Counted from the stretch's first letter, positions 47,077-64,000 are shown. The stretch: 64,000 nt of DNA from Candidatus Micrarchaeota archaeon (GCA_018812625.1 JAHJDH010000001.1:19967-83966), one strand, 5' to 3'. The notes: a model not told the origin generated them from the sequence alone. Numbers and translations are program-made.

Positions 47077-47631
47077 ATGAGGGGGTATCTATCTTTTGTT
47101 CTTGTATTGTTATCGATAGGTCTAGTCCTTACCCTCCTGGAGCTCAATATGCATTACAGTTCCACGAAAGCTCTTCTGATTGAGCGTTCCTATTCTCTTT
47201 CAATGAACATAAAGGAAGCTATTCTAGAGTCACTTTGGCAAGGTGCTCAAAGTGGTTTTGACAATTACAATTTTGATCATGATATTGCAATGTGTGTCCA
47301 TTGTCCTGCCTGTCATCCAAAGACTTGCGATCCGCTCAAATGCCAGAAGTGCTTTAGAGAATCTGAATCCAGAGCCGCTGCAAAAACACATTCTCTTATA
47401 TCACTAAATAAACTGAAATCCCATTCCTTTGATCCAGATTTTGAGGTTTCAATTGGTGAAGTGCAATTGGAAGCATATACTCGTCCTGATCCACTATCAA
47501 AAAATGGATTTAGTTTGGATTCTTTAAAGATCACAAATAATATTCCGATTTTAATCAATTCTGAAAAATTTGATATTTATGGAGAGGTGAATGTGCCATC
47601 AGGGGTGATACTTTATGAGAGGTCAGATTAG
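47077..47631 (+). CDS. type IV pilin-like protein (class III signal peptide-like N-terminus), Cys-rich
   Basis: 'MRG/YLSFVLVLLSIGLVLTLLEL', followed by a Cys cluster 'CVHCPACHPKTCDPLKCQKC'. Confidence 0.55.
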   Translation: MRGYLSFVLVLLSIGLVLTLLELNMHYSSTKALLIERSYSLSMNIKEAILESLWQGAQSGFDNYNFDHDIAMCVHCPACHPKTCDPLKCQKCFRESESRAAAKTHSLISLNKLKSHSFDPDFEVSIGEVQLEAYTRPDPLSKNGFSLDSLKITNNIPILINSEKFDIYGEVNVPSGVILYERSD

Positions 47632-47932
47632 TCTTGAATTTTTATTGATGTTTTCAATTAGCTTAGTGCTGTTTTCCACTTTGGCCTCAGTTCTAATTGT
47701 TGAGCAAGAAAAATTGCAGGATGCTCATGCAGATCTTCAGAAAATAACTGCAGTAAAACAAGCATCTTTTGCTGCTTCGCTTTGGCTAAACAATGGACGG
47801 ATCTATCCGCTAGATTTTAGTTCTGAAAATATTTTTTTCAGAATAGAAAATGATCGATTTTTAGTCGTTTATAATATGGAAGTTATTGAAATTGAGGGGG
47901 TTTTTGATTATGAAAAGTCAGAGCCATTATAG
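47615..47932 (+). CDS. type IV pilin-like protein (class III signal peptide, DUF361-like QxSxE motif)
   Basis: 'MRG/QISLEFLLMFSISLVLFSTLASVLIV'. GGTGA lies 6 nt upstream of the ATG. It overlaps the upstream gene by 17 nt. Confidence 0.7.
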   Translation: MRGQISLEFLLMFSISLVLFSTLASVLIVEQEKLQDAHADLQKITAVKQASFAASLWLNNGRIYPLDFSSENIFFRIENDRFLVVYNMEVIEIEGVFDYEKSEPL

Positions 47933-48314
47933 GGGCGCTATCTCTTTTGATACTCTTTTTTCTATTATCCCAATTCTGATGATCTTCGTCCTGTTATTTC
48001 AATCAATACAATTTATTGGTCTCTCAACCGAAGAGAGCTCCAGGGATCAGGACTTGTTTGATAAGCTGGTTTTGGCTGCTGATTATACTGTAAAATCCGG
48101 CGCAGCAGTGCGTGATGGAAATATAAGATATCCAAATTGGATTGAAGAAGGCAAGATCTCTTCTTCGTATTCCGAAGGACTTCGCATGCGCTATGGCCTC
48201 AATGAACTCTTTATTTCTCTGGATACTCCAGAGGAATCTTCAATGTGCATCTACCGGATGGTTGTCTATGGCAACTCGAAGAAAATATCAAAACTTTTTG
48301 TGTGTGGTGATTGA
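47886..48314 (+). CDS. type IV pilin-like protein
   Basis: 'MKSQSHYRG/AISFDTLFSIIPILMIFVLLF'. The likely start is the ATG at 47910; the track start at 47886 is a TTG. Confidence 0.6.
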   Translation: MKLRGFLIMKSQSHYRGAISFDTLFSIIPILMIFVLLFQSIQFIGLSTEESSRDQDLFDKLVLAADYTVKSGAAVRDGNIRYPNWIEEGKISSSYSEGLRMRYGLNELFISLDTPEESSMCIYRMVVYGNSKKISKLFVCGD

Positions 48315-48315
48315 A

Positions 48316-48672
48316 ATGCAAACTTTCGAAGCAATAATCTCACTTTTGTTTTTTGTATGGATGCTAACTCTGAGCTTAGTAAGTTTTGAGGCTCCAGAGC
48401 TTAACTATCAGGTTTATCAGATGCAACTTTCCAGCGATGCTTGGAGAGTTCTTTATCTTCGGGGTAATTTTGAGGATTTGTCGGATATGCAGTTGGTTGA
48501 AGCTGACCTTAATCAACTTGGCAGTGTTACTGGACTTTGCTTTTTTTTAGATGGAATTGAAACTACAAACTGCAGGGGCGGCGTTAATGATCATGATCTT
48601 TCAGTTTCATCATATCGTACAATCATATTCAATTCTGAACCTAAAACAATCAGATTTTCCATGGGAACCTAA
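48316..48672 (+). CDS. small N-terminally hydrophobic (pilin-like) protein
   Basis: 'MQTFEAIISLLFFVWMLTLSLVSF'. The ATG at 48316 follows GGTGA-N5 and lies 1 nt after the upstream TGA. The track ORF 48142-48672 extends upstream through the previous gene in another frame. Confidence 0.5.
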   Translation: MQTFEAIISLLFFVWMLTLSLVSFEAPELNYQVYQMQLSSDAWRVLYLRGNFEDLSDMQLVEADLNQLGSVTGLCFFLDGIETTNCRGGVNDHDLSVSSYRTIIFNSEPKTIRFSMGT

Positions 48673-48792
48673 ATTTTTTCTACAATTTTACGGAGTTATT
48701 ATTCGTCTATTTTTGTTGGGCTCAAATATCACGTCTTATGACGTATAGTCACCAATAAAAACATTCTAGCATATATCAAGACAATAATTTTA

Positions 48793-48797: not shown

Positions 48798-48801
48798 AAA
48801 T

Positions 48802-49965
48802 ATGATCGGACCATCAATCAAAAGCGAGCTAGTTTCATATCCAATCCGGGATATTGTTCAAGCAGCAAAAAAATATGAAAAACAAGGTACGGACATGATC
48901 TATTTGAATATCGGCGATCCTGCTCCTTATGGGTTCAGACCTCCACAACACATACTTGATGCAGCAGCAGATGCGCTCAAACAAAATTATTCTGGCTATG
49001 CTCCATCAGAAGGGGATCCGGAGCTTCTCGAAGCTGTTGCTGAATATGAAAAAGTTTCTCCCGAAGATGTGTTTATTACTGCAGGCCTTAGCGAAGGAAT
49101 CGACTTTTTGTTTCAGGCTCTTTTAGATCCTGGACGCAATTTTCTTCTTCCTGTCCCAACATATCCACTTTATCTGACCAAGGAAAGAATCAACTATGGA
49201 ACAGTTGATTTTTATGACTGCGACGAGGATATGGAACCTGACCTTGATAGTCTTAGGATGAATATCAATGAGTATACAAAAGCCCTTGTAGTTATCAATC
49301 CAAACAATCCAACCGGAGCAGTTTATTCAAGAAAAACGATTGAAGGAATAGTTGATATTGCTGGAGAGCATAACCTGCCGATTATTGCAGATGATGTTTA
49401 TGACCAGATGGTCTTTGATGGCGAGATTACTCAGGTAAAGAAAGTGTGCAAGGATGTTCCGGTTGTTTCCGGAAACAGTCTTTCCAAGAATTATATTTAT
49501 CCAGGTGCTCGTGCTGCATATCTCTCATTCTCTGGCGAAGGCTGGGATGAGATCAAAGATACTATACAAAGGTTATGCAATCAAAGGCTTTCTGTTAACT
49601 GGGAAATGCAGCGGGCATATATCGCAGCGCTCAAAGGTCCTCAGGATCATATCCAATCATTCAATTCAGAGCTCAAGAAAAGAAGAGATCTTATGGTGAA
49701 GCGGGTTGGTGAAATCGAAGGATTAAGTATCTCTCCTCCAAAAGGTGCATTCTATGCATTTATTGGCGTTGAGGGCCCTTGGAAAACTGATACTGAATTT
49801 GTATATGAGCTTCTAAAAACTGGAGTTGTTGTTGTTCCGGGCTCTGGCTTTATACCAAAGAAGACTGATAAAAAATACTTTAGGATGGTTCTTCTCCCCC
49901 AGCTCAACCAGATTGATGATGCATTTAATAGAATTGAAAAATTCATGAAAGAAGCATCACAATAA
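48802..49965 (+). CDS. class I/II PLP-dependent aminotransferase (aspartate/alanine aminotransferase type)
   Basis: 'INPNNPTGAVY', 'DDVYDQMVF', the PLP-lysine context 'SGNSLSKNY', and 'FRMVLLP'. Confidence 0.88.
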   Translation: MIGPSIKSELVSYPIRDIVQAAKKYEKQGTDMIYLNIGDPAPYGFRPPQHILDAAADALKQNYSGYAPSEGDPELLEAVAEYEKVSPEDVFITAGLSEGIDFLFQALLDPGRNFLLPVPTYPLYLTKERINYGTVDFYDCDEDMEPDLDSLRMNINEYTKALVVINPNNPTGAVYSRKTIEGIVDIAGEHNLPIIADDVYDQMVFDGEITQVKKVCKDVPVVSGNSLSKNYIYPGARAAYLSFSGEGWDEIKDTIQRLCNQRLSVNWEMQRAYIAALKGPQDHIQSFNSELKKRRDLMVKRVGEIEGLSISPPKGAFYAFIGVEGPWKTDTEFVYELLKTGVVVVPGSGFIPKKTDKKYFRMVLLPQLNQIDDAFNRIEKFMKEASQ

Positions 49966-52512
49966 TTATTTTTTATTATCCTTTCTCTTTTGTTTTAATC
50001 TCTCTTTTAGAGAAAGTTTTGCTTTTGCCGTAGTTTTTTCAGTATTTTTAGTTTCTTTTTTTGTCTCTGGTTTTGATTTTGCTGCTGGAGGATGTGCTGG
50101 TTTTGTTGCAGCTCTAATTGAAGGTGGCGGAGCTGGCGGTGGATCATCATTATCTTCCTCCTCGACATCATCCAGTGCTTTTGAAGCTGGTGCTGATGAA
50201 ACATTGTTTTCTTTTATCATCTTCGGTTCATCTGGAATTTGCACTACTCCAAGCTTTCTTTTGCTTAGCTCTTCCTGGACTATCTGTTTGAATATTGGCT
50301 CCCATTTGTCCCAAGCATCACCAAAATCAATTCCGCCCTGTTCATTTTCCATTGCAACCAGATGTCTTGTTGCAGCAGTATTAACTTTCAGTACAAAATC
50401 AAGCTCTAACATCAGCTTATCATTTAGCTTTAGGCTTGTTTTGTAAATTTGATCATACATCTTTCCTTTCCAGAATGCCTGGATAATATACTGCTCTGGT
50501 GAAATTCCTGTTTCTTCACTTCTTCTGCCAAGTGCTGGTGGAATAAATGCTATATCAAGTTCTCTTTCCAGTTTTCTAATATCAACATTTTCAAAGTCTG
50601 TCATTGTTGCTTCAGGATTCCTTAGGAATTTTGCTTCCCATGTACACTCTTTGATACTATCCCCACGTCTGAATCTGAAGATTTCGACAAATTTCTTTTC
50701 TTCAATGTCTGTTTCATATTCAAAACCAAGAACTCTGTATATTCTTCCCTTCCTACCAAACCTGATTTTCTTTAGGAAACTGTATCTGTCTGTTGCATAC
50801 ATACTTGCTGCTGGAAGTCCGAAAACAAGTTCAAGTCTGTCCTGCACATCACGAAGTGATTCTGCATGGAGGTTATAGAGCAGGAAAACACCTGGCTGAG
50901 TGTTGAGGAGATTGATAATACCCTGTACAGCAATACGGGATCTAACTTCGTTAATAATAAGCGCAGCATCACCCATACGAAGAAGTGCATTTGCCATTGT
51001 AACAAGATCCAGTTCTTTGGTTGTTCCTGCTCCTTCTGACTCAGAACTTTGTACCCTTGCAGCACCAATATGGAATCCTCTTTTTCTAAATGCACGAACA
51101 GGAATTTCTTCGATATCCTGGATGGGGATAATTCTTCTTCTTGTACCGATAGAAGTTACCTTTGCAGCAGTAAATGAAGTTTTACCAACACCCTTAAGTC
51201 CCAGAACTGCTTCCGAACATCCAAGAGTTACCATAACATCATCATACCCAGCAAAGAACGGAGTAAATGATTTGAAATTCAAATATTGTGCGTATGTAAA
51301 TGGCTGTTCTTTCATGATTCTAAGAGCTCCCTGAAGCTCACCAAAAGTTGCTGGTGGCCTTTGCAAGTGGCATCTCATTGCATGTCTTTTCAAAACAACA
51401 TCTACAATTGGGCTGTTTTCGTCAAACTTTCTTGTTCCCTTAAGGGTTTGGACAATGTTTTTGAAACACCTCTCAAGAAGATCCCTATTGTATCTGTAGA
51501 GCGTGTGGCAAAGCCCGTATTTCGCATGTTCAATGTAAATTGGCGAGTTTTCACTGTCAATGTAAATATCAGTAATATTCTCCTTATCAAGTGCCAAATT
51601 TTCGATATGCGCTCCCATACCAACAACCCATGCAGCGCATTCTCTTCCCATTTCCATTGCCTGTTGAGGGGTGATTTTATTCCCCTCCATCATTGCACGA
51701 TCAATGAAAAACTGGCGGTATTCCCTTGTTTTGATGCTCATTAAAATATCCCAGTCTACGTTGCTGAACTGTTCCTTGAATTGTTCATTGATCGTTGTTT
51801 TCAGAAGATTATTTAGGTCACTTCCAAGATTTTCTATTGTGTTCTCTTGTACATAAAGATAAGCTTCTGCGTTTGGAACTTCATAGATTTGTACCTTTAC
51901 ACCAAATGGAAGATCATACCTTGCATCATCTGCCTTTACTGGTTTTGCGCCTGGGGGAATATCTAAAACCAAAGATGGAACAAAATAAAGTGTTCGAAGC
52001 CCGACCAAATTCAAAAATGCAGCTCTAAGGTCTCCTGTTTCTTTAACAAGGTCATATAGTGCAGTTGATTTGTATCTCTTCAGAATTCCTGCAACCCATC
52101 CTTTGAATGTTCTATATCCTGCAAAATAAATTGATCGCTCAGGTTCATCTTCCTGATAATCCGCAAGTTGGTTTGCTGCCAGAATGGGATTTAGAAAAAC
52201 GTATTCATAGAATCTTTTGAGCATTTTTTTCCTTCCAGGAGAAGCTGGATCCTGGTTCAATCCATAAATGTCATTTTTGAGAAGTATTGTTTCCAGTTGC
52301 CTGATAAAGGCAGCATATTGGGTCAATACTGAGGTTTTCTTCTCATTTAATTCGACTACAATCTCCTCCTCATAACGAATTGTTTTTATCGGAGATTCAG
52401 TTGTTGAAAGATCTTTAAGATGAAGATTCAAAAACTCTGGAGAAGCAAATTCATATGGGCACTTTGCCAGGTCGACAATGGCACGTGTCCCTTCGAGATA
52501 CAGGTTACACAT
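49966..52512 (-). CDS. FlaI/VirB11/GspE-superfamily secretion/filament-assembly ATPase with a long N-terminal region and a Pro/Lys-rich C-terminal tail
   Basis: 'ENITDIYIDSENSPIYIEHAKYG', Walker A 'GLKGVGKTSFTAAK', Asp-box-like 'RIIPIQDIEEIP', Walker B region 'ALIINEVRS' and His-box-like 'LLYNLHAES'. The tail reads 'PPPAPPPSIRAATKPAHPPAAKSKPETKKETKNTEKTTAKAK...KRKDNKK'. Confidence 0.75.
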   Translation of the reverse strand: MCNLYLEGTRAIVDLAKCPYEFASPEFLNLHLKDLSTTESPIKTIRYEEEIVVELNEKKTSVLTQYAAFIRQLETILLKNDIYGLNQDPASPGRKKMLKRFYEYVFLNPILAANQLADYQEDEPERSIYFAGYRTFKGWVAGILKRYKSTALYDLVKETGDLRAAFLNLVGLRTLYFVPSLVLDIPPGAKPVKADDARYDLPFGVKVQIYEVPNAEAYLYVQENTIENLGSDLNNLLKTTINEQFKEQFSNVDWDILMSIKTREYRQFFIDRAMMEGNKITPQQAMEMGRECAAWVVGMGAHIENLALDKENITDIYIDSENSPIYIEHAKYGLCHTLYRYNRDLLERCFKNIVQTLKGTRKFDENSPIVDVVLKRHAMRCHLQRPPATFGELQGALRIMKEQPFTYAQYLNFKSFTPFFAGYDDVMVTLGCSEAVLGLKGVGKTSFTAAKVTSIGTRRRIIPIQDIEEIPVRAFRKRGFHIGAARVQSSESEGAGTTKELDLVTMANALLRMGDAALIINEVRSRIAVQGIINLLNTQPGVFLLYNLHAESLRDVQDRLELVFGLPAASMYATDRYSFLKKIRFGRKGRIYRVLGFEYETDIEEKKFVEIFRFRRGDSIKECTWEAKFLRNPEATMTDFENVDIRKLERELDIAFIPPALGRRSEETGISPEQYIIQAFWKGKMYDQIYKTSLKLNDKLMLELDFVLKVNTAATRHLVAMENEQGGIDFGDAWDKWEPIFKQIVQEELSKRKLGVVQIPDEPKMIKENNVSSAPASKALDDVEEEDNDDPPPAPPPSIRAATKPAHPPAAKSKPETKKETKNTEKTTAKAKLSLKERLKQKRKDNKK

Positions 52513-52537: not shown

Positions 52538-54166
52538 TTAATTATCCTCTTCTGCTTCTATTTCAGTCTCATCGATATTTATGGCAGATCTTCTTTGTCG
52601 TCTTCTTACTGGACTAAGTCTTATTGAAGCTGTAGCATCATCTGGCGAAATTGATATTCTTTCGTCTCTATATCCTCTTTTCCTAATAACTAGCCTGTGT
52701 TCTTTTCTCTCAAGCATCAGCTCAAGTGGATTTTCAGTGTTTCCTATTCTGTGGAATCTTCTGTTTTTCTCAATAAATACATCTGCGCCAGTTGGAGTTG
52801 TTTCAATTCTTGCCCTGAAATTTACTGATTGAACTGGCTGTTGTACTGGTTCTTGCCTATCTTCCACTCGTCTTTGAATTTGGTCTATGACAGGATCAAT
52901 TCTATGCTTTATTTCATCCCTATAATAATATCCAGCTCCAGCTATGGCAGCAAGTGCTCCTACTACTATGATCCTTTTGAGCCAACTACCTGCTTTTACT
53001 TGCGGGATCTCCTCGTCCCTTAATCCCCCTGTTTCTTTTCCAAGATCACTGACTATGGTTGCTGGTCTTTCTGGAACAACTCTTTCTGTTGGTATTTGTC
53101 TACTATCCGGTTTCTCTGGCGTCATTTTTGGCTCAGGATGAATTGATGGCCTGATTGTACTTTCTCTTGTATGAAGCAACAGAAGGTTCTCAAGCTGATC
53201 TGAAAATACTTCAGTATCTATGATGGCTGCCTTCAGCTCTTCTGCGCTTTGGAATCTGTCTCTTGGATTTTTTCTGATTGCCTTTAGAATAACTGCTTCA
53301 ATTCCAGGAGTGATATCTGCATCTGGCTTTATTTCACTGGGACGTTTTGGTGCGTCATTTTTGATACTCTCAATCAATTCAAGGAGATTCTCTCCCTTAA
53401 ATGGAACATCTCCAGTAAGAAGCTTATACATGATAATTCCAACTGAGTATAAGTCTGCTCTGTGATCATAAGCGTCTTTTTTTCCAAGTGTCTGCTCTGG
53501 TGCCATGTAGTTGATTGTTCCCATGATTGTTCCTGTTCGTGTAAGTTCATCACCATGCGTAGCCTCATCTGCACCATTTGTCAATCTTTTTGCAAGTCCA
53601 AAATCAAGTATCTTTACAACTCCTTCTTTTGTGATGAATATGTTCCCTGGTTTGAGGTCTCTGTGTATGATTCCTCTGGCATGTGCTGCTCCAAGTCCGT
53701 CGCAAAGCTGCACAAGATATGACTTTACCTCATTCCAGCTCAGTCCTCCTCCATTTGCCTTTAACTTCTCTGAAAGATCCTGCCCGTCAAGAAATTCTAT
53801 GATGCAAAATGGCTGTTCTTTGTATAATTCGTAGTCAAGAGTACGGATAACATTTGGATGTTTTATCCTTAGGTTTGATTTAATTTCTCTGAAAAAACGC
53901 GTTGCTGAATCGCCGTCAGTAATAGATGCGTTGCTTAGCTTTAGTGCGACTTTTTCTCCTTTTTCATCATATGCAAGATAAACACTGCCCATTCCTCCTT
54001 TTCCAAGGATATCAACTACTCTATAGCTTTTACGTGCTCCTCTTTCTGATCTTCCTCTTACTATAGTGCTAACTATTGGGTCCTGGCTCTGCTGAATTTG
54101 CTGGAAATTTCTCTGAGGCCTTCTCAGGTCCATTCCCCTATTTGCCCTGGACCGAAATCTTTGCAT
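52538..54166 (-). CDS. Hanks-type Ser/Thr protein kinase with one TM and a C-terminal PEGA domain
   Basis: 'LGKGGMGSVYLA', 'VALK', 'IIHRDLKPGNI', 'ILDFGLAK' and 'YMAPEQ'. The TM is 'IIVVGALAAIAGAGYYY'. The PEGA-like region is 'IETTPTGADVFIEKN...HRLVIRKRGYRDERISI'. Confidence 0.9.
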   Translation of the reverse strand: MQRFRSRANRGMDLRRPQRNFQQIQQSQDPIVSTIVRGRSERGARKSYRVVDILGKGGMGSVYLAYDEKGEKVALKLSNASITDGDSATRFFREIKSNLRIKHPNVIRTLDYELYKEQPFCIIEFLDGQDLSEKLKANGGGLSWNEVKSYLVQLCDGLGAAHARGIIHRDLKPGNIFITKEGVVKILDFGLAKRLTNGADEATHGDELTRTGTIMGTINYMAPEQTLGKKDAYDHRADLYSVGIIMYKLLTGDVPFKGENLLELIESIKNDAPKRPSEIKPDADITPGIEAVILKAIRKNPRDRFQSAEELKAAIIDTEVFSDQLENLLLLHTRESTIRPSIHPEPKMTPEKPDSRQIPTERVVPERPATIVSDLGKETGGLRDEEIPQVKAGSWLKRIIVVGALAAIAGAGYYYRDEIKHRIDPVIDQIQRRVEDRQEPVQQPVQSVNFRARIETTPTGADVFIEKNRRFHRIGNTENPLELMLERKEHRLVIRKRGYRDERISISPDDATASIRLSPVRRRQRRSAINIDETEIEAEEDN

Positions 54167-54197: not shown

Positions 54198-55889
54198 CTA
54201 TGCTGTTCCGTCGTGTTTGGTTTCGACGATCATTTCTACTATTGTGGCATATGCTGGTCTTGTAAGGAGATATCCAAGAAGCGCTCCAAGAATGGTTGAT
54301 TCTGCAAATCCAATGATCTCAACAAGTCCTGAGAAAAGAAGTGGAACCATTGCAAATATGGCCACTGTTGCATTTGTTTTGATTATTCCAAATGCAAGTT
54401 CTATTTTTTCAACTACTTTTCTATTATCTTTCTTTAGAATTTCATCTGTGATAACTATCTGAGCATCTACCCCAACACCCACAGCAGCAATGATACCTGC
54501 CATTGCAGCAAGGTCTATTGTGAATGAACCAAGAATGGATATAAGAATCACAAGCTCTGCAAGGCCAATTAACACGATTGGTGCTGTTACCTTTAGATTC
54601 TTGTATCTAAATCCAATAAGAACTGAAATTGCAACTAGTGATGCCGCAATTGCCATCATACTGAGCTTAAGGAACTCACTTCCCAGAGATGCCGGAACAG
54701 TGGTTCTAGATCCAAGAGAAATTTGTACTGGAAGAGAACCTCCTTTGAGGATTGATTCCATGCTCTTTACCCGCTCTTGAGCTTCAAGTGCGCGCTCTTG
54801 CGGGTTAGTTGCACTAACTCCCCCAGTTACTGTGTATGAGTAGCTTTGAATTCCATTTGTAATTCCGCTGTTTAAAAGGGGTGAACTTAGAAGTCCTACG
54901 GATTCAAGTCTTGCCAAAATAAGAACACCAGTTCGTGTTCTTGTAAAGTCTGCTGCCATCTCGGCATCATCATACTCAACAACCTCAAAGCCTAATCCTG
55001 TGAGATTTGCTTTTGCTGCTGTTGACATGTTCTTTGAAACAATTGCTTTTGTTTTATTGGATTTTGGTGTAAAGTTTGCTGGTATGTCCTCTATGATGTA
55101 TACATTGATATCATCATTCTCAAGTGCAAGTGCATCGTCCATTGATCTAAGTGATTCTTTTTCTCCAGAATCCGCAGATATGTATTTTTTGAAATCTTCT
55201 TTTTCATAGAATACTGCTGCATCTTGTGGCCTATCCAGGAACATATAAACAGGATAATCATTCTTTCCTTTTGCAGTTGTAGCAAACTGTGCTGCTCCCT
55301 CATTATCTACTGAAAATAAAACTCCCCATGCAGCTCCTCCGGAAAGCTGTTGTGGTGGTGCTGGTCTGATTGATTGCGAAAATATTTGCTCTCCATTAAT
55401 AGCTTCCTTTCCATCAACAATTGCCTGGAAAACTCCTTGTTTTGATAGAGTATCTTCAACCATTGCAATTGTAGCCTCATCATCACTTGGGAGCTCTACA
55501 TTTACCTGATTGTCACCTATTGCACGTACCTTTACCTGCGTTAGTCCAAAGACACTGACTCTCTTTTTTATGGTCTGAACAAGTTCATTCATTGTTGTCT
55601 GGTCCACAGATTCATCCAGTACAACTGGTATTCGTGTTCCTCCGCTAAAGTCAATGCCAAATGTTATCCCATGAATATAAATATTCAAAATCGCAAGTAT
55701 GACGAGAAGCACAAGCGCGCCTATTTTTATGTGGGATTCTTTCCACATAAGAGAAATTGACCCAAAGACAATAACTGCCAATATGATTGTGATTCCACTG
55801 ATTGTTGAACTGTTGAACGCTATTATTGCTAGGAATACTGCAAATAATGCGATAAGCGCAAGCATTCTTTTGTCATTGTACATGTCCAT
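54198..55889 (-). CDS. secD: protein-export membrane protein SecD
   Basis: An N-terminal TM, a large extracytoplasmic domain starting 'GIDFSGGTRI', and a C-terminal 5-TM bundle with 'GVGVDAQIVITDEILK'. Confidence 0.85.
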   Translation of the reverse strand: MDMYNDKRMLALIALFAVFLAIIAFNSSTISGITIILAVIVFGSISLMWKESHIKIGALVLLVILAILNIYIHGITFGIDFSGGTRIPVVLDESVDQTTMNELVQTIKKRVSVFGLTQVKVRAIGDNQVNVELPSDDEATIAMVEDTLSKQGVFQAIVDGKEAINGEQIFSQSIRPAPPQQLSGGAAWGVLFSVDNEGAAQFATTAKGKNDYPVYMFLDRPQDAAVFYEKEDFKKYISADSGEKESLRSMDDALALENDDINVYIIEDIPANFTPKSNKTKAIVSKNMSTAAKANLTGLGFEVVEYDDAEMAADFTRTRTGVLILARLESVGLLSSPLLNSGITNGIQSYSYTVTGGVSATNPQERALEAQERVKSMESILKGGSLPVQISLGSRTTVPASLGSEFLKLSMMAIAASLVAISVLIGFRYKNLKVTAPIVLIGLAELVILISILGSFTIDLAAMAGIIAAVGVGVDAQIVITDEILKKDNRKVVEKIELAFGIIKTNATVAIFAMVPLLFSGLVEIIGFAESTILGALLGYLLTRPAYATIVEMIVETKHDGTA

Positions 55890-57016
55890 TAGTCATCCCT
55901 CTTCGTTGCATAGTGCAATACAAGAACCGCGTTGATTCCCCATGTTGCAAACATGTCTCCAACAAGCCCTGCGAGAGCCACTCCTGAAATCTCAAAATAG
56001 GTTGGTATGTGTGTCCACACTGATAATATGAATAACGAAGTAAAAGCAATAATCCCAGTAACGCTCATGGTCAATCCTGTTTTCATTGCATCAAATGCAT
56101 TTTCTCTTGGATCTCCCTTTCTTTTTAGAATTCTTGTTGTAAGTAAAATATCTGTATCAAGTGAATAACCTATAAGCATAAGCAGTGCAGCAAATGAAGC
56201 TAGTGTGAGTGGAATTCCAAAGAGTCCCATTGCTCCAAGTGCAATTATAATATCTGCAAGTGCCCCTGTCAAAACAGCGATGCTAGGCGGTATTGATCTA
56301 AAGAACATGAACACCAAAATAACACTCAAAATTGCTGAAAAAATTATTGTATCAACAACCGTTCCAATGAATTTTTCAGATAGAACCGGACTTACTGTTT
56401 GGACTGACATTGAGTTATAGCTTACATGTTTTTCTATTGGTTTTGAGATTGACTTTTGATAATTTGAGTAGACTGTTGAGTATGCTGTTGAAAATTCGCG
56501 CTCAAGATCATTGGTGCTGTTTGTAGCAACCTTTCCCATACCTGCCATCATGAACAGTTCATTTGCAACCTCATCAATCTCAGTCTTTTTCTCTTTGAAT
56601 TCTGAAATGTATGCGCTGTCCTGGTAAGATAAAATTTCTAGTTGCGAAACTTCTGGAATTTTATCATTAAATTCTGCTTTGAGTTCTTCTGCCCGAACAA
56701 GATTATCGCTTTGTGGAACTTCGATCTCAGCAATATATCCAATAGAAGTTTCATATGAATTGACTGTTGCCTCAAGTCCTTCTTCTTGCAGTTGCGCCTG
56801 AAGCCCTTCAGAATCTATTGCATTCTCAAGAGTAAGTGTCACAAGTGTTCCGCCCTGGAAGTCGACCCCCATCTTTATCGATGGAATGAAAAAGAGCGAT
56901 ATTGCCATTAAAATCAGAGGCGCTATAGAAAGCAATCTATAGTCCCCCTTGTATATATTAGGAAGCATAGAATCATCAGTTTGAATCAAAAGTGCTACAA
57001 AATCAATATAAACCAA
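55889..57016 (-). CDS. secF: protein-export membrane protein SecF
   Basis: 'GVDFQGGTLV' and a C-terminal TM bundle with 'LIGYSLDTDILLTTRILKRKG'. Its stop overlaps the secD start by 1 nt. Confidence 0.85.
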   Translation of the reverse strand: MVYIDFVALLIQTDDSMLPNIYKGDYRLLSIAPLILMAISLFFIPSIKMGVDFQGGTLVTLTLENAIDSEGLQAQLQEEGLEATVNSYETSIGYIAEIEVPQSDNLVRAEELKAEFNDKIPEVSQLEILSYQDSAYISEFKEKKTEIDEVANELFMMAGMGKVATNSTNDLEREFSTAYSTVYSNYQKSISKPIEKHVSYNSMSVQTVSPVLSEKFIGTVVDTIIFSAILSVILVFMFFRSIPPSIAVLTGALADIIIALGAMGLFGIPLTLASFAALLMLIGYSLDTDILLTTRILKRKGDPRENAFDAMKTGLTMSVTGIIAFTSLFILSVWTHIPTYFEISGVALAGLVGDMFATWGINAVLVLHYATKRDD

Positions 57017-57034
57017 TTCCCTTCTTGGGAAATA

Positions 57035-57411: not shown

Positions 57412-60400
57412 TTGGGCGAGAGTAACTCATCAACTGGCAATTCTTCAACTAAGCCAAATGTATCTATGAGAAGTTTAAGGTCTCGGATTACCTCCCCTGA
57501 AGCAACCGCAAGATCTTTGATCAAAAAAACTTTCCCAGCAACCTATCATTTTGAAGCACCAAAGATTCCCATCATTAAATTTTCAACTGCATTTGAGCTT
57601 GAAAATGAGACAAACGTAATATCTCGTCCAGGAGATGATTTTCGACATACTCATCCACAACTGCCTGGCAGGGATTATAGCGAGCAGCAGCGTACATTTG
57701 CAATTGGTCTTGTTATTGAAGCAGAACAAATGGCCAGAGATCCTGATGCTCCAGTGCCAGATACAGTAACTCCTCAAAAAGAACGTCTTCTAATGAGTAT
57801 CCTCGCAAATCCAAATTTCAAAAAAGCTGCAATAAAATCTGATCGCTCAACAGAGCTTAGAATTGCTTTTGAAGAACTTGATCTTAATCTCCATTTTATT
57901 GAATTATCCAGGTCTTCGTCTGGAGCATCTGTTGAAGAATTGCGTGCTTTGGCAAAAGCGGATATAGAATTGGCAAATGATATACTCTTATATCACCAGG
58001 CTGATCCGAATTCAGAAGATAGCAAAGGAGGTGTAGCATCAGTACCACCACTTAATTTCATGTACGTCGGACTTCCGATTTTTGAAAATGCTCTCAAGAA
58101 GGACAATTCAAAAACTGCTCCATTTACTCTTGCGCTGCAACTACTTCCTGATTTGCGCTGGATCGAATCCAGAATTCCACAGATTCTTGATGAATCGGCT
58201 AGGGCTCAAGCTCTTACTGATTATTCAAATGCCAGAGGCGTGCTTGACATTTACGAATACAGGCTGCAAAATCCTGTTGCTGGTGATCTAACCAAAGAGG
58301 GTTTTGTTGAAAGACGCATGGCCCAATTAAAACATACTTCAAGATTGGACGATGCACTACAGGTTTCATCTGAACTTGAAGTTCTTAATAACCATATTTC
58401 TGAGCTGATGTCCAAGCCATTGGAACTCCTCGAAGACTTAGCAATACCCGTTGCAGTTGAGGATCTTGAGGCTGCAATTGAGACTCTAGCTGAATATCAC
58501 GGAGCAGTAAAAGCTGAAAGTATTTCCTCTTCACTTACCTCATCAAAAGTAAAACGCCTTGCCCAATTAGTAGAACTACACGGTTCCAAATATACCGAAC
58601 TTCAACTTGCACTTGATGTTATTGATGAGATGCGAGCAGAATTTAAGGCAATTTCTACTGAACGCCCGCCTCCAATTTCAAAATCAACTCCAGTTCGGGC
58701 ATCATCTCCACCAAAATCAAGACTTGATTTTTTATTTCCATTTCCACATGTTGCAGATTCTGATGCTGAATTTGAATCACTCCTTCCAGGATCCGATGTT
58801 CGAAACTCCCAGCTAATCAAAAGAGTAGCAAGAACCCTGAAAACATATTCACTTTCCAGTATCCCATACAAGGATGTTCCTGATGTTTACAAAAAATCTG
58901 TTGCGTCACTTCGTCATGATTATTCTCATGCTGGTACTGTGCGAATGGCAAAAACACTTGTAACCATATCTCATGGAATGGGAATGATTTCTGATGTCTA
59001 TCCAGAATTTCCTACTCCTTTAGAGCAAGCTGAATATGAAGCGCTTTTAGCTACTATGAAATCAACAGATCCATCTTTCATTACTAATCATTTTGAAGAT
59101 GAATTGCCTTCTTCAGAAGCTCTTGAAAATGCATTGATTTTGCTCAAGAATGGTCCTGCTCTTTTCAGAAATCATGTTATGGGTGGATGGGGCAATGGAA
59201 CTCTTCCAGAAGAAATTTGTGGCTATTATGATCCGGATACAAAGCTTATCATTGCTTTTGATGATCCTGATCTTTCAGAGGAGATAACTCAGGATGCAAT
59301 ATATTTTGAATTTTCTGTTGATCCAAACACAAGTCGTGTTCATTTAGTAACTGGATGGGATGCTCCTTCAATTGCATATCTTGATGGAATGCAAGTGGCT
59401 GAACTACTTGAAACTTCTGAGGAACCAACTTCTGATCTTTTTGAGGAACCAAGTCTCGATCCTTTAGCTGACCTTCATTTTGAGCCTCCTGTTGAAGCTG
59501 CGGATGCTGAAGCGCGCGAAGTTCGGCCAGTTCAACCTGTGCCAGAATTAAGTCTGGATGAAGAAATTACTGAACCTGAATCTGAGCTTCGGAAATGGAT
59601 GGACTCTCAGCGCACTGTTAAAGATAGCAAACCAGGAACCCCCCTTGAAGCAGTTTTGGGTGAAGCCGGTGCACCAGAGCCTCATCCAACTGAATTAGAT
59701 TGGCCAGAAGGCATAGAGGTTGAGATAGGAACTTCTGATTTTGATGAACCTGCTGTTCCTCCAAGTGAGCGAATTACTCATCCGGAGATCACTCCTTCAA
59801 ACAAAACAGTTATGGGATGGCTAGAGCTTCCATCAGAAGCTCCAACAACTCCACCTCCACCAAAAGTTTCTGATGATGTTTCAACAGAATTGGTTTTTGA
59901 TCTTCCAAACGTTGGTATTAATGATGAGCTTGAAGCAGCTCTGAATCAAAGTTTCCCCCGCAAGATTGGCGGAGTAGAAAATCCTAGAAACGTTAACATA
60001 AGAAGAGTTGCGAGAACATTGGTTCTTTATCTTGGCCTTAATTCAGAATATCCAAGATCTGCAGAACAAGTTCAAATGCTACTCACTGTCCGCTCTGGCT
60101 CTCCAGTCGATCCAACAATTCCACCTGTTTATGCCAAGGCAGTTGAATCACTTAAGGACAATCCAGATCTTTCAAATCTTATTCCTCTTGCAGTAGGTCT
60201 TGTTAATGCCAGTGAAGAAGCATCTGGCCAGAAATCGACTGCAATGCTTCCAGATTCACCTCCATCTGCGGTCCCAGCACGTCCTGCACTTGTTCCGCAG
60301 CCTGCACAACCACCACTTGTTACTGAGCCAATATCTTCCGTATTTGATCAGCCGCCTGTAGAAGACGATCAAACCATTTTCCAAAGGTTGCAACCTCATC

Positions 60401-62364
60401 AAAAAATTCTGATTGCAAAAGCACTCTATCAAACCGACTGCACTGCAGATGATCTTGAAAAGTTCAGAACAATGGATTCTGGCGTTCGTGAGCTTCACAT
60501 GCAGAATTACATTGCATCTGTTTGGCCGCAGGGCGATTTCAAAAGAAACCTTGCCAGCTTCAAAGAAGCTAAATGTTCTCTCTATCAAATGTTTTCCCTT
60601 TCTTTGCCATCTCCATCTGAAAAGGAGCGTGCAATAACAAATCCTGCAAACCTTTCTTCAGTTCAAAGAGATATGGTTGCAAGTCTTTTTGGAATTCATG
60701 CTTCTGAAGTTACTGGAAAACACATTACTGGTTTTGGAATTTGGGTCAGCGGAGAACATGCAGAGCTGCTGAGTTACTGGGAACAAACTTTGCTCGATGA
60801 TTTCAATATTATTTCACTTTCCCAATCCATGGTCACATCAAAAGCATCGCCCTACCATAGACTTTCATCAGAAAATCTCATGCTCCTTTCATTTATTCTA
60901 AATAAGGATCCAATGCAAATGACCCCGCAGGATTTTGTAAATATCGAAGCTGTTACTGCATTTAGGAAAAAACTAAGACATAATGCATATTTCTGGAGGG
61001 ATGCTAACGAATATTCCATATTGAATGCATTTGCATACAAGTGGTTTACTTCAACAAAAGAGCAAAGACAAAGGCAATGGATGAACAGTTCTGTAAACCT
61101 ATTTTCTGTTTCTGATTTTGCCCATCGTTTAAGATTTGTTAAACCAATGACTTATGCTGAAGCAGATACAAAAATACTCGAAGCAATTTATGAAAAACCT
61201 ATTGCAGAAATTCCTCAAGATAATATCACTGCTTTTGCCAGTGCAATTTTGAACAAAACATATGGTGACAGGGCAAAAGAGTATTATCCTCAGCTCCTGA
61301 GGCTCTTTAAAATCGCAGGCGATCCGAAAAATCTTCGCGAAACAGTTTCCAAGAATGAAAAATTCAATATTCTGCTTGAGTTTTTAGGCGGTCCAAAACT
61401 GGCAGTACAAGCAGAGTTTGTTAAAGTTGCTGGACTTACTGCTCCTAAATTCCAAACCCGTCAGGTTGATGATAATGGCAGAAAAAGCTTGCGTGTAACT
61501 GATAACTACTGCGAGACAAATGATGATTGCTTTACTGGTGTTCAAATAACTTTGCCAAACGGCCAGGTTATTCATATGAATGGAGTATTTGATGGTATGG
61601 GCGGCCATGATACGATGAAAGGTCTTGTTCCAGGTTATATGAGCAATGGTCAGGTTGCAAGCAATGTTGCAAGAGAAACAGTAGAACTTTGTGCAAGTGC
61701 AGGCTGGATTCAGACTCCTGAAGAAGCGCGCCGTGCAATTGTTATTGCTGATCTTGCTGTAGTCTTTGAACAAATCGCAAAGAAAAAAGATCCAGACAGT
61801 ACTTATCAGGAAAACGATATGGGTACGACTGCAACAATTACTCTAAGAATTGGAAATCAGTTTTATGGAATCCATGCTGGCGATAGTGAATACAAAGTTA
61901 TTCGAGATGGAGAAGTTGTCTTCCAATGTCCAATTCATAATATGGGTTATATGATGAAATCTCTTGGACAGGAGTCCAATGGAAAATTCCCAACTAATGT
62001 CATTGTTTCTGCTCTTGGTACATTATCCTCCTTTATTGATATTAATGGATTCAAGCTGCAAAATGGGGATAAAATATTCGTTTCTTCGGATGGAATTAGC
62101 GATCTTATGCTGGATGCAGAGATTGTGAGCATACTTGGTCAATATCCTAATTTGGATGATGCTGGTCATGCTATGCTGAGGCTTGCGGAATCAAGGAAAC
62201 AAAAAGGAAGATATACTTCATCAATACCTCCTGATCCATCAAATGGCTCTGCTTCAGAGGAGATCAAAGGGCATAATGATGACAAGACTGTGGTTTTAGA
62301 TGAGTATTCTTTTGATGGTAGAGATGTGGCTTCATTTTTGGAATCCACCTGGGAGGTTTCATAA
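57412..62364 (+). CDS. giant (1650 aa) cytoplasmic protein with about 1350 aa of unknown N-terminal region and a C-terminal PP2C-family Ser/Thr phosphatase domain
   Basis: PP2C motifs lie in the last 280 aa or so: 'GVFDGMGGHD', 'DMGTTATITL', 'IHAGDSEYKV', 'IFVSSDGISDLM' and 'NDDKTVVL'. It has no TM segment. There is a Pro/Glu-rich central linker and an internal duplicated module ('...RVARTLKTY...' / '...RVARTLVLY...'). Confidence 0.8.
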   Translation: MGESNSSTGNSSTKPNVSMRSLRSRITSPEATARSLIKKTFPATYHFEAPKIPIIKFSTAFELENETNVISRPGDDFRHTHPQLPGRDYSEQQRTFAIGLVIEAEQMARDPDAPVPDTVTPQKERLLMSILANPNFKKAAIKSDRSTELRIAFEELDLNLHFIELSRSSSGASVEELRALAKADIELANDILLYHQADPNSEDSKGGVASVPPLNFMYVGLPIFENALKKDNSKTAPFTLALQLLPDLRWIESRIPQILDESARAQALTDYSNARGVLDIYEYRLQNPVAGDLTKEGFVERRMAQLKHTSRLDDALQVSSELEVLNNHISELMSKPLELLEDLAIPVAVEDLEAAIETLAEYHGAVKAESISSSLTSSKVKRLAQLVELHGSKYTELQLALDVIDEMRAEFKAISTERPPPISKSTPVRASSPPKSRLDFLFPFPHVADSDAEFESLLPGSDVRNSQLIKRVARTLKTYSLSSIPYKDVPDVYKKSVASLRHDYSHAGTVRMAKTLVTISHGMGMISDVYPEFPTPLEQAEYEALLATMKSTDPSFITNHFEDELPSSEALENALILLKNGPALFRNHVMGGWGNGTLPEEICGYYDPDTKLIIAFDDPDLSEEITQDAIYFEFSVDPNTSRVHLVTGWDAPSIAYLDGMQVAELLETSEEPTSDLFEEPSLDPLADLHFEPPVEAADAEAREVRPVQPVPELSLDEEITEPESELRKWMDSQRTVKDSKPGTPLEAVLGEAGAPEPHPTELDWPEGIEVEIGTSDFDEPAVPPSERITHPEITPSNKTVMGWLELPSEAPTTPPPPKVSDDVSTELVFDLPNVGINDELEAALNQSFPRKIGGVENPRNVNIRRVARTLVLYLGLNSEYPRSAEQVQMLLTVRSGSPVDPTIPPVYAKAVESLKDNPDLSNLIPLAVGLVNASEEASGQKSTAMLPDSPPSAVPARPALVPQPAQPPLVTEPISSVFDQPPVEDDQTIFQRLQPHQKILIAKALYQTDCTADDLEKFRTMDSGVRELHMQNYIASVWPQGDFKRNLASFKEAKCSLYQMFSLSLPSPSEKERAITNPANLSSVQRDMVASLFGIHASEVTGKHITGFGIWVSGEHAELLSYWEQTLLDDFNIISLSQSMVTSKASPYHRLSSENLMLLSFILNKDPMQMTPQDFVNIEAVTAFRKKLRHNAYFWRDANEYSILNAFAYKWFTSTKEQRQRQWMNSSVNLFSVSDFAHRLRFVKPMTYAEADTKILEAIYEKPIAEIPQDNITAFASAILNKTYGDRAKEYYPQLLRLFKIAGDPKNLRETVSKNEKFNILLEFLGGPKLAVQAEFVKVAGLTAPKFQTRQVDDNGRKSLRVTDNYCETNDDCFTGVQITLPNGQVIHMNGVFDGMGGHDTMKGLVPGYMSNGQVASNVARETVELCASAGWIQTPEEARRAIVIADLAVVFEQIAKKKDPDSTYQENDMGTTATITLRIGNQFYGIHAGDSEYKVIRDGEVVFQCPIHNMGYMMKSLGQESNGKFPTNVIVSALGTLSSFIDINGFKLQNGDKIFVSSDGISDLMLDAEIVSILGQYPNLDDAGHAMLRLAESRKQKGRYTSSIPPDPSNGSASEEIKGHNDDKTVVLDEYSFDGRDVASFLESTWEVS

Positions 62365-62452
62365 TGAACCACGTTTGTTTATCTATCGAAACATTTAAAT
62401 ATACTATCCCACACATGTATATATTAAAACACTTTATATTATTTACATCGAG

Positions 62453-63178
62453 GTGATGAGTTTGGCGGAACAAAAAAGTAAAACTGAAACTATTACACAA
62501 AGTCGTGCACTTGCAGCACATTCTGAAAACGTTACCAACTTAATGGGCGGGCGTTTGGGTCAAACCTTAATGGAAGGTTTGAGAATCGTCGAAAACGGCG
62601 CTAAAGCTGGTCGAGAATCCATGGAGCAAAGGCTTGGGGAAAGACTTGATTCTGTTTCTAATGAAGCATCTGCAGCAGCAGGAAAAGCTTCAGCTGCTGA
62701 AAAGTCTGCATCAACTGCAGCAACAAGCGCAACCGAGGCAAAAGCCGCAGCAGCAGCAGCTCAAAAATCAGCAGAAGAAACTTCTGACAAGGCATCTGCA
62801 ATGGCTGATGATGTTGCAAAAGTTACATCTGAATCAACTGCAGCAAAAGAGTTGGCAGAATCTGCAAAAAGTTCTGTTACTGATCTTTTGAAAGCACTTA
62901 CAATCAAAGTAGTTCGAAAAGTCGGTGAAGAAGCACAGCAAATAACCGGCGGTGATGCAATTTCTCATTTGGTTAAGTCTGTCAGTAATTTCGGACATAC
63001 ACTTGCAAGATTCCAGGAAAGAATTGCAGAAGTTGAAACTGATGTTAAGGACCTAAAAGCCGATGTACCAGAAGTCGAAGCACTATTTGGGGATATTATA
63101 TATACACTAAAACAAAGCGGCTTTGATTTACAAGAAGCTCCAAAACCAAAAGAAGGAGATAAAGGAGGAGATTCATAA
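62453..63178 (+). CDS. Ala/Ser/Glu/Lys-rich helical repeat (coiled-coil or apolipoprotein/LEA-like) protein
   Basis: 241-aa ORF with 'SAAAGKASAAEKSASTAATSATEAKAAAAAAQKSAEETSDKASAMADDVAKVTSESTAAKELAESAKSS'. The start is ambiguous (GTG 62453 or ATG 62456, after GAGGTGA). Confidence 0.55.
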   Translation: MMSLAEQKSKTETITQSRALAAHSENVTNLMGGRLGQTLMEGLRIVENGAKAGRESMEQRLGERLDSVSNEASAAAGKASAAEKSASTAATSATEAKAAAAAAQKSAEETSDKASAMADDVAKVTSESTAAKELAESAKSSVTDLLKALTIKVVRKVGEEAQQITGGDAISHLVKSVSNFGHTLARFQERIAEVETDVKDLKADVPEVEALFGDIIYTLKQSGFDLQEAPKPKEGDKGGDS

Positions 63179-64000
63179 TGGCTTTAAGAAACCTAAGAAA
63201 ACAATTCCAAGGCGGAGCTGAGAAAAAGGAAGCACCTCCAAAATTACCTGATCCAAAACCAGAGGAACCTCGAGCTGGTTGTGGACCAACTCCAGGAAAT
63301 AATCCAGGAGATCATGATCTAACAAGGGAAGCTGATGTTGAAGAACAAAAGGCACTAGCAAAAAAATCAAGGCCTCCAGCAGCAGAAGCTATGGCTGCTG
63401 AAACAAGAGAAGTAGATCTTGAAGATCTTGATAGCGGAACTGGTCTTGGAGAAGATCCAGGTCTTGCTGATGCTCTTGAAGGTTCTGATGCTGATAGTGT
63501 TTCAGAAGATGCTGATCAGGTTCTTGCTGAATTGCAGGAAGCACTTGATGCAGTCGACGATGATCTTGTTGATCCATTAACTACAGAAGCAGATCTTTCT
63601 CAAACTCCTGAAGAAGAAGAATCTACCCCTCCTATTCCAGCTGCTCCTAAAAAGCCTCTAAGAACTGGAGCAACTCCAAAAGTAGAGGAACCAGAAGAAG
63701 ATGAGAAAAAGCTGGATATGGATGCTGTACAATCAGTAGTCCAGGCAGCACTAACAAAACTTTTAGCTCCTATTGAAGCAAAACTAGAAGAACTTGGAAA
63801 AAAGGTTGTTGGTCTTGAAATTGCCTTCCTAGGTGAAGATGAAGAGGAAGATGAAGAGCCAGACCAAGAAGTTGAAGATCTTAAAGAAAGGGTAGCCAAA
63901 GTTGAAGGCTTAAAAACATCAGTTGATGGCCTTGAAAGTGATATTAAAGGACTTCGCGATCTTATTGATGGTGAAAACGGCATTTCAGTATCTATTGGTC
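63178..64000 (+). CDS. acidic Pro/Glu/Asp-rich protein with a C-terminal coiled coil, 3'-truncated by window edge (not in the ORF track)
   Basis: The ATG at 63178 shares its A with the upstream TAA. The frame stays open to the window end (at least 274 codons): MALRNLRKQFQGGAEKKEAPPKLPDPKPEEP...EDLKERVAKVEGLKTSVDGLESDIKGLRDLIDGENGISVSIG. Confidence 0.6.
   Translation, partial: MALRNLRKQFQGGAEKKEAPPKLPDPKPEEPRAGCGPTPGNNPGDHDLTREADVEEQKALAKKSRPPAAEAMAAETREVDLEDLDSGTGLGEDPGLADALEGSDADSVSEDADQVLAELQEALDAVDDDLVDPLTTEADLSQTPEEEESTPPIPAAPKKPLRTGATPKVEEPEEDEKKLDMDAVQSVVQAALTKLLAPIEAKLEELGKKVVGLEIAFLGEDEEEDEEPDQEVEDLKERVAKVEGLKTSVDGLESDIKGLRDLIDGENGISVSIG

Follow-up and report, generated by a model that had tools for sequence, protein, structure and literature searches.

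A micrarchaeal synteny block with pilin-like genes, a stand-alone paralogue of the pilus ATPase and a Hanks-type kinase

Does a run of pilin-like, motor, kinase and phosphatase genes in an archaeal genome encode one machine, or several neighbours? The question is raised by positions 47,077 to 64,000 of a 64,000-nucleotide (nt) stretch from a Candidatus Micrarchaeota archaeon (GCA_018812625.1, JAHJDH010000001.1:19967-83966), which in its full length we call the window. A first-pass annotation, made from the sequence, had read this region as a lineage-specific attachment or secretion apparatus under serine/threonine phospho-control. Pili-like appendages have been reported on ultrasmall cells of DPANN archaea and the candidate phyla radiation (CPR), where they are proposed to serve host attachment (PMC5498576, PMC7906910), and a new apparatus in such cells would be of interest. 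Our analysis does not support a single integrated apparatus; the region is probably a synteny block passed on vertically in Anstonellales/Bilamarchaeaceae-type Micrarchaeota, in which three adjacent units, made up of genes of known kinds, are separable from one another. The window is a piece of chromosome from a metagenome-assembled genome (MAG). The closest named relatives of the window are Candidatus Bilamarchaeum and the Bilamarchaeaceae, order Anstonellales (Micrarchaeota, DPANN), and an essentially 100% identical ATPase is encoded on JAHJJP010000032.1 (GCA_018822695.1).

Gene order and its decay across Micrarchaeota

The genes in question are packed in three operon-like units. On the plus strand, rpo7 (RNA polymerase subunit E', a housekeeping gene; 46268-46864; SHS2_Rpb7-N 6.7e-17, S1 2.6e-10), a gene for a 55-residue Spt4 (RpoE'')-like protein (46861-47028; NCBIfam Spt4 3e-8), pil1 (47077-47631), pil2 (47615-47932), pil3 (47910-48314), pil4 (48316-48672) and a class I/II aminotransferase gene (48802-49965; Aminotran_1_2 1.6e-51) follow one another at spacings of -4, 48, -17, -23, 1 and 129 nt. 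The spt4 gene, whose family was found in 30 loci, overlaps rpo7 by 4 nt and had been missed in the first-pass annotation; its position between rpo7 and pil1 makes the pilin genes part of a tightly packed co-directional run that ends with the aminotransferase. On the minus strand, secF (55889-57016), secD (54198-55889), a Hanks-type Ser/Thr kinase gene (52538-54166) and the gene of a divergent secretion-superfamily ATPase (49966-52512) are spaced by -1, 31 and 25 nt, and these gaps and overlaps of at most 31 nt are close enough for co-transcription. The two units converge, with the ATPase and aminotransferase genes lying tail-to-tail across a 0-nt gap. The third unit, on the plus strand and divergent from secF across 395 nt, comprises the gene of a 1650-residue protein with a C-terminal PP2C phosphatase domain (57412-62364) and two further open reading frames (ORFs), at 62453-63178 and 63178-64000, which had both been described as coiled-coil proteins.

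Linkage across related archaea had been named as the way to check the proposed apparatus, and we ran this comparison on 10 kb to either side of ATPase homologues in 74 species-representative genomes (L001-L074). Window proteins were mapped onto these loci by tblastn, all ORFs were also clustered de novo, and the counts include only loci with enough flanking sequence. Where the ATPase is at least about 78% identical to that of the window, the gene order is as follows: PP2C and, in some loci, VIT1 on one strand; SecF, SecD, none, one or two kinases and the ATPase on the other; then the aminotransferase, pil4, pil3, pil2, pil1, Spt4 and Rpo7 on the strand of PP2C. Beyond Rpo7 the order continues through variable giant surface proteins to the inositol-1-phosphate synthase (Ino1P), ligase and M17 genes, which lie on the strand of the ATPase.

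Within this shared arrangement the genes of the proposed system are held no more firmly than the housekeeping genes around them. In the bin of 78-85% ATPase identity, the aminotransferase is linked in 22/22 loci and Rpo7/Spt4 in 16/19; the corresponding values are 21/21 for SecD, 17/22 for the kinase, 9-16/22 for the pilins and 12/16 for PP2C. Between 74 and 78% identity, linkage has fallen to 8/11 for the aminotransferase and 9/13 for SecD, and to 4/14, 2/11 and 3/12 for the kinase, pilins and PP2C, respectively. Below 74% (26 species) it is essentially gone: the aminotransferase is linked in 1/21 loci, SecD in 0/12, the pilins in 1 of 17-19 and the kinase in 2/19, in neither case adjacent, and the ATPase is flanked by unrelated genes, such as those for a PP-loop ATPase, SRP54 or phosphoglucomutase. 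The aminotransferase is thus the most persistently linked neighbour of the ATPase, and the kinase, pilins and PP2C leave the neighbourhood earlier than the housekeeping passengers, the reverse of the order expected of a functional module. Because housekeeping genes are linked as well as or better than the proposed system genes, and because all linkage has gone below about 74% ATPase identity, we conclude that the region is probably not one system.

Individual loci show how the units come apart. In six species (L007, L021, L022, L028, L033 and L040) the interval from the aminotransferase to Spt4(-Rpo7) is too short to hold pilin genes. The kinase is absent and SecD abuts the ATPase in ten (L012, L023, L026, L028-30, L033, L036, L055 and L065), and PP2C is kept in three loci where the kinase is missing (L012, L023 and L065). 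A contig whose aminotransferase is 50% identical to that of the window (L077) retains pil1-4 and the aminotransferase; the next gene is a plus-strand membrane ORF and not the ATPase. In addition, no member of the pil1 family could be assigned to the 1.57-Mb complete chromosome of L033, whose ATPase is present in the same database.

A conserved paralogue of the pilus-assembly ATPase without an adjacent platform

The ATPase, of 848 amino acids, belongs to the secretion superfamily of hexameric ATPases (VirB11/PilB/FlaI) by sequence, profile and structure-model matches, in agreement with its initial description as a divergent FlaI/VirB11-type protein. Pfam returns no match to any family, T2SSE (PF00437) included, which is found in every canonical DPANN pilus ATPase. 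Among PDB sequences it matches CpaF (6e-12), the GspE of Archaeoglobus fulgidus (AfGspE, 2.5e-6) and FlaI (3e-4), and among NCBIfam models TadA (1.1e-17), VirB11 and FlaI, all far under their cut-offs. Alignment by hhalign to the canonical DPANN pilus ATPases of about 700 residues pairs columns 17-760 with columns 17-721 at a probability of 100% (E 1.5e-42, 20% identity). The Walker A lysine, the Asp-box, the Walker B glutamate and the His-box residues are invariant in stand-alone and canonical ATPases, with the surrounding contexts changed (NEVRS in place of GEVRG at Walker B, YNLHA in place of GTIHG at the His-box). By the alignment and these residues, the protein is a paralogue of the canonical archaeal ATPase of pilus assembly, full-length and with its catalytic motifs intact. 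The idea that its N- and C-terminal domains are unique to it was ruled out by the hhalign result, as the canonical enzymes share them; archaeal type IV filament ATPases are reported to vary in these domains (Sivabalasarma & Albers 2026 preprint, 10.64898/2026.04.22.720090).

An AlphaFold2 model built with a mixed multiple sequence alignment (MSA) reached a predicted local distance difference test score (pLDDT) of 81 and a predicted TM-score (pTM) of 0.70; it replaced a first model, from an MSA of 10 near-identical sequences, which had a pLDDT of 51 and gave uninformative Foldseek results. The core of the protein lies at about residues 296-600, and in the model residues 756-835 form a disordered Lys/Pro/Ala-rich tail. 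The length of this tail was considered as a correlate of kinase presence, which was ruled out, as it tracks phylogeny. The best Foldseek match is AfGspE (PDB 2oap; E 3.7e-23, TM-score 0.76 normalised to the target), followed by FlaI and CpaF (PDB 4ii7 and 8rkd). AfGspE shares the N-domain and RecA-like core; the window ATPase differs from it in being about 350 residues longer, with an extra N-terminal region of about 200 residues, a C-terminal helical domain and the disordered tail, and the two are 18% identical.

The family is narrow and slowly evolving. Full-length matches in an exhaustive HMMER search over 1.84 billion cluster representatives came from only two clusters at the 50% identity level, that of the query itself and one (P0121) that is 55% identical; beyond these, similarity falls to about 30% over the core only. 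The ATPase thus belongs to a tight, Micrarchaeota-restricted orthologous group. Across 29 species its median identity to the window protein is 81%, compared with 80% for inositol-1-phosphate synthase, 76% for Rpo7, 75% for the aminotransferase, 69% for DNA ligase, 63 and 62% for SecF and SecD, 34% for the kinase and 27% for PP2C. It is the most conserved gene of the region, above Rpo7, DNA ligase and SecDF. A very conserved assembly-ATPase paralogue away from a platform gene recalls the bacterial stand-alone motors PilT and PilU; unlike these, its best matches are GspE, FlaI and CpaF and not the PilT family. Archaea have been reported to lack PilT (PMC4858521), and a retraction role for the stand-alone ATPase is pure conjecture.

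No match to a canonical platform protein (T2SSF) or a prepilin peptidase (Peptidase_A24) was found by Pfam among the scanned ORFs across the 64-kb window, as the first-pass annotation had also noted. The Pfam scans covered the larger ORFs, about 47 proteins, and ORFs without a hit were scanned for hydrophobicity; the only polytopic candidate among these, an ORF with six transmembrane (TM) segments at 16962-17654, was rejected as a prepilin peptidase for want of a GxGD motif. Among the 74 loci no polytopic neighbour of the stand-alone ATPase recurs. None of 117 representative ATPase neighbours is listed with a T2SSF or A24 match by Pfam, which is a weak test, since Pfam and NCBIfam are also blind to the protein of about 9 TM segments encoded behind the ATPase in canonical DPANN loci; TM counts were used there instead.

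Such canonical loci exist elsewhere: Micrarchaeota and other DPANN encode self-contained canonical pilus loci. In 5/6 of those inspected, a T2SSE ATPase is followed directly by a protein of 610-767 amino acids, for which the estimate is about 9 TM segments in the two cases tested. In L075, L076 and L083 small genes come in a row after this pair, and several have class-III-like N-termini; in L082 small genes of that kind flank it; and L075 also has a Peptidase_A24 match and an upstream DUF2341/PKD adhesin. The canonical pilus ATPase of the micrarchaeal locus L076 (10001-13864) is 1287 residues long, and its T2SSE domain is interrupted by an intein that contains a LAGLIDADG homing endonuclease. 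In published work, two type IV pilus systems and a single FlaK-like peptidase are described for the cultured micrarchaeote Mia14 (PMC5498576), and type IV pili are reported for Anstonellales-type MAGs (PMC8561730); searching the latter paper's supplements for FlaI/J/K was without result.

Set against the canonical DPANN and euryarchaeal type IV pilus loci (classified by Makarova, Koonin & Albers 2016, PMC4858521; Sivabalasarma & Albers 2026 preprint, 10.64898/2026.04.22.720090), the region shares a full-length homologue of their assembly ATPases of about 690-770 residues and small proteins with class III signal peptides. It differs from them in that platform, peptidase and DUF2341 adhesin are absent from the window, in that its pilin genes are convergent to the ATPase gene and embedded in the run from rpo7 and spt4 to the aminotransferase, and in that the stand-alone ATPase, which Pfam T2SSE misses, evolves far more slowly, with 73-97% identity against 37-60% among the canonical ATPases listed.

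Pilin-like proteins, the kinase and phosphatase, and the rest of the window

Four pilin-like genes lie at or near the positions given in the first-pass annotation, three with a class III leader and one without. The start of pil3 is the ATG at 47910, inside an ORF beginning at 47886, and that of pil4 the ATG at 48316, inside an ORF beginning at 48142, both as in public gene calls. With a slash marking the predicted cleavage point, Pil1 begins MRG/YLSFVLV, Pil2 begins MRG/QISLEFLL, a DUF361/QxSxE-type pilin N-terminus, and Pil3 (134 amino acids) reads ..HYRG/AISFDTLFSIIPIL; Pil4 (118 amino acids) begins at MQTFEAIISLLFF, without a Lys/Arg-Gly leader. These N-termini are conserved as M[RK]G/Y.SF in 24 orthologues of pil1, as [KR]G/Q.[ST].EF in most of 15 orthologues of pil2, as Y[RKN]G/..S.DA..S in 21 orthologues of pil3 and, for pil4, as MQT.EA..SL in 23 orthologues, hydrophobic and of pilin type. 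Going by these motifs, the predicted N-termini of Pil1, Pil2 and Pil3 are textbook archaeal class III signal peptides, with a [KR]G-type cleavage site and a hydrophobic helix. Pil2 also comes just under the cut-off of the Pfam Class_IIIsignal model (E 1.8e-4, 21.8 against 23.7 bits), and the ectodomain of Pil1 has a Cys-rich motif with invariant C73, C76, C89 and C92.

A profile search with 22 pil1 sequences found 67 family members in 5.8 billion proteins; most are unnamed, and all named ones are from Micrarchaeota except one from a 'Chromatiaceae' MAG contig that is likely mis-binned. Median identity of the pilins to the window is 31-44%. We conclude that pil1-4 encode real, lineage-specific, fast-evolving pilin-like proteins; the pilin-like families and the ATPase clade are both restricted to Micrarchaeota, so that the label 'lineage-specific' stands for these parts. 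No obvious major pilin was identified among the four. Hidden Markov models (HMMs) of pil1-4 run against the small genes of four canonical pilus loci gave a best E of 0.004, from N-terminal hydrophobic similarity alone. The neighbouring aminotransferase, already suspected to be a passenger, is a housekeeping, alanine-aminotransferase-like enzyme (best NCBIfam model alanine aminotransferase, 1.6e-117, below cut-off). It is always the final co-directional gene after pil4, including in L077 (3049-4218) and L078 (11732-12988), and the most persistent link involving the pilins is the one from pil1-4 to this gene, kept on the distant 50%-identity contig where neither Rpo7/Spt4 nor the ATPase is adjacent, an association for which we offer no explanation.

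The kinase is of the Hanks type, with a Pkinase match of 7.5e-53 and the motifs HRDLKPGN, DFG and APE present in its translation, and it has one hydrophobic, TM-like segment at about residues 396-415; its description as a membrane kinase therefore holds, and the PEGA sensor domain also ascribed to it, here a PEGA-like C-terminal ectodomain, is borderline only (E 5e-4, 20.4 bits against a cut-off of 20.8). Two paralogous Hanks kinases stand in tandem directly upstream of the ATPase in L008, L009, L011, L013, L014, L020, L022, L059, L063, L064 and L069; the window has one. The PP2C domain was likewise rightly recognised: it is restricted to the C-terminal ~230 residues of the 1650-residue protein, where the PPM-fold metal-binding motifs DGMGGH and SDGISD are present (NCBIfam Stp1 2.3e-18, PDB Stp1 3.3e-12). 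From their motifs, kinase and phosphatase look catalytically competent, and the phosphatase protein, with no TM segment predicted, is probably cytoplasmic. Homologues of the PP2C protein in other species are mostly 570-750 residues long, so its giant N-terminus is a recent expansion. This N-terminal region of about 1350 residues has no family match, contains an internal repeat (RVARTL...Y...VY.K.V.SL, twice) and is shared only in part by the shorter homologues; a tandem-repeat scan returned a single trivial 24-nt repeat, within the same gene.

The best NCBIfam models for the two enzymes are the Stk1-family kinase (8.5e-76) and the Stp1-family PP2C, both below equivalog cut-offs. The bacterial Stk1/Stp1 pairs resemble them also in the build of the kinase, which has one TM-like segment and a sensor-like domain outside the cell. 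They differ in that the ectodomain here is PEGA-like and not PASTA, in that the PP2C domain is fused to its long N-terminal region, and in that the two genes are not co-operonic but lie on opposite strands with SecDF between them. Ser/Thr control of a type IV filament machine has a precedent in the Arn network of Sulfolobus (PMC4858521 section 16; PMC5300886); it acts through FHA and vWA proteins, and ArnA and ArnB are reported never to occur in type IV pilus or archaellum loci (PMC4858521). Like that network (ArnA/B, the kinases ArnC/D and PP2A), the region combines a Hanks-type kinase and a Ser/Thr phosphatase with a type IV filament-type ATPase in an archaeon. Unlike it, the region has no FHA or vWA domain in its ORFs by Pfam scan, and its kinase is absent from the 10 syntenic species named above and from nearly all deeper ones. 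It is position alone that ties the substrates of kinase and PP2C to the neighbouring genes.

SecD (SecD_SecF_C, Sec_GG, SecD_1st) and SecF (SecD_SecF_C 2.8e-26, Sec_GG) are as first identified, with the SecD_SecF_C membrane domain, Sec_GG motif and P1 domain of their family. The two downstream 'coiled-coil' proteins fared differently: the product of 62453-63178 is an Ala-rich, coiled-coil-like protein of 241 residues with weak Alanine_zipper/SMC-like matches, found in only 4-5 close relatives, and that of 63178-64000, truncated by the window edge, is acidic and Pro/Glu-rich with no Pfam family. Upstream, two giant surface proteins with beta-helix/NosD/CarboxypepD_reg domains are indeed encoded (36453-39725 and 40954-46188, plus strand). 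They fill a variable slot between the Rpo7 and inositol-1-phosphate synthase genes, which in other syntenic species is empty or holds one unrelated gene or different giants; in L003-L006, L010 and L014, for example, they are absent, and Rpo7 adjoins Ino1P or lies one gene away. This suggests a hot spot of surface-protein turnover.

The remaining window genes are housekeeping genes, among them those for HerA, PurD, PolB, Pus10, SRP54, thermosome, DNA ligase, M17 peptidase and inositol-1-phosphate synthase, and GC content is even (0.37-0.42). The genes for a HerA-like protein (DUF87/AAA_10; 24-1499, plus strand) and NurA (27444-28364, plus strand) lie 26 kb apart, in contrast to the usual herA-nurA operon. 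A Mur-ligase-family protein (15490-16812, minus strand; Mur_ligase_M and Mur_ligase_C) and a class-I glutamine amidotransferase (9262-10023, plus strand) resemble bacterial MurT/GatD-type enzymes. A 725-residue ORF (18848-21025, minus strand) has an acidic, low-complexity N-terminus, with no Pfam match and no TM segment. The Spt4 homologue of the window genome and its nearest relatives is without all four zinc-ribbon cysteines, whereas other Micrarchaeota orthologues keep CxxC...CxxC (MSACKQCRY...CPKC in L012, for example). An Rfam scan of the window gave a tRNA-Gly as its sole RNA match, and a promoter and terminator scan with bacterial-type models, which are not applicable to archaea, gave the same counts as shuffled sequence.

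Competing explanations and the place of the ATPase

Several observations weigh against reading the region as separable units. The block holds together in about 40 species, and a pilin cluster lying about 1.3 kb from a secretion ATPase is mildly improbable by chance (about 0.05-0.1 on a rough estimate for a genome of ~1 Mb with a few of each). The kinase stays adjacent to the ATPase despite inversion of SecDF in L017 and L067 and is often tandemly duplicated directly upstream of it, which could point to a genuine regulatory link. For L033, the absence of pil1 comes from a word-filtered profile search and may be a failure of sensitivity. Moreover, a canonical locus in the same genome as a stand-alone ATPase was looked for without success: none of six canonical ATPases shares an assembly prefix with any of the 74 loci. 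Set beside these points, the arrangement within the clade counts as one inherited event and not as many independent ones. That the whole of 47-64 kb with the upstream beta-helix proteins forms a single apparatus for attachment or secretion, in which the Hanks kinase and giant PP2C switch the motor or substrates, is in our view very unlikely, for all that an envelope and export theme of pilins, ATPase, SecDF and surface proteins shares a block with a kinase and a phosphatase, that Sulfolobus Arn offers a precedent (PMC4858521; PMC5300886), and that the kinase has kept its place by the ATPase through the SecDF inversion. Housekeeping genes keep their linkage longer than kinase, PP2C and pilins do, many syntenic loci are without the beta-helix giants, which are variable insertions, the region has no FHA/vWA reader, PP2C persists without the kinase in three species, and the ATPase stands alone in 26 deeper ones.

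A narrower coupling, in which the ATPase and pil1-4 are partners in a lineage-specific minimal type IV filament that borrows its platform and peptidase in trans, with SecDF, the aminotransferase, PP2C and the coiled-coil proteins as bystanders, we hold to be unlikely. In its favour, both are type IV filament components, about 1.3 kb apart; between 78 and 85% ATPase identity 14-16 of 22 species keep their arrangement, as do L025, L029, L036 and L078 at 73-75%; and pil1-4, being without homology to the canonical-locus pilins, may be a separate set. The Epd pilus ('system 1', clade 1) of Methanococcus maripaludis, whose ATPase and platform genes lie apart from the pilin and peptidase locus, sets a precedent for such a division. 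It has several minor pilin-like proteins with a QxSxE (DUF361) N-terminus, here seen in Pil2 only, and the window ATPase is nearer to TadA/CpaF than to FlaI by sequence similarity searches; unlike Epd, no EppA-type peptidase, two-gene platform or major pilin of about 70 residues was found in the window. Against such a partnership stand the six species whose ATPase is 74-81% identical and whose locus has no pilin genes, the L033 chromosome without detectable pil1, the L077 contig where pil1-4 and the aminotransferase persist with no ATPase adjacent, evolutionary rates as different as 81% and 31-44% median identity, and two units that are convergent and not co-transcribed. It is also rather improbable that the ATPase has left filament assembly for another essential task in membrane or nucleic-acid translocation, with pil1-4 belonging to the canonical pilus machine. 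Its conservation above Rpo7 and DNA ligase, the lack of a platform neighbour in 74 species, its escape from a Pfam model that recognises every canonical DPANN ATPase and its altered Walker B and His-box contexts would fit such a departure; its full-length homology to pilus ATPases, N- and C-terminal domains included, the secretion and pilus ATPases that make up all its best structural matches, and the absence of any alternative partner conserved next to it argue otherwise.

In the synteny-block reading that we prefer, a peptidase encoded elsewhere would cleave Pil1-3 after their conserved glycine, and Pil1-4 would then serve a type IV filament machine as a set resembling minor pilins. The ATPase would form a hexameric motor that docks on a platform also encoded elsewhere. 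The membrane kinase and the PP2C protein may be a general signalling pair of the Stk/Stp type and not a dedicated controller of their neighbours. A bolder proposal, and one that we consider a long shot, is that the stand-alone ATPase is a second dedicated motor for the type IV filament machinery of Micrarchaeota, for example a PilT-like retraction or switching motor acting on the canonical platform, which may use pil1-4 as a priming set and be gated by the adjacent kinase or kinases.

The result is a caution against reading too much into positional clusters in MAGs. What merits follow-up is the pilus-ATPase paralogue itself, which occurs throughout the Micrarchaeota with no platform gene beside it, is missed by Pfam T2SSE and, across dozens of species, is better conserved than Rpo7 or DNA ligase. 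Such a motor, conserved but with no known partner, could be informative about the driving or the retraction of type IV filaments in archaea. Were it indeed a second motor, it would provide a distinct ATPase for retraction or an alternate mode in archaea that have no PilT, within a lineage that relies on contact with host cells.

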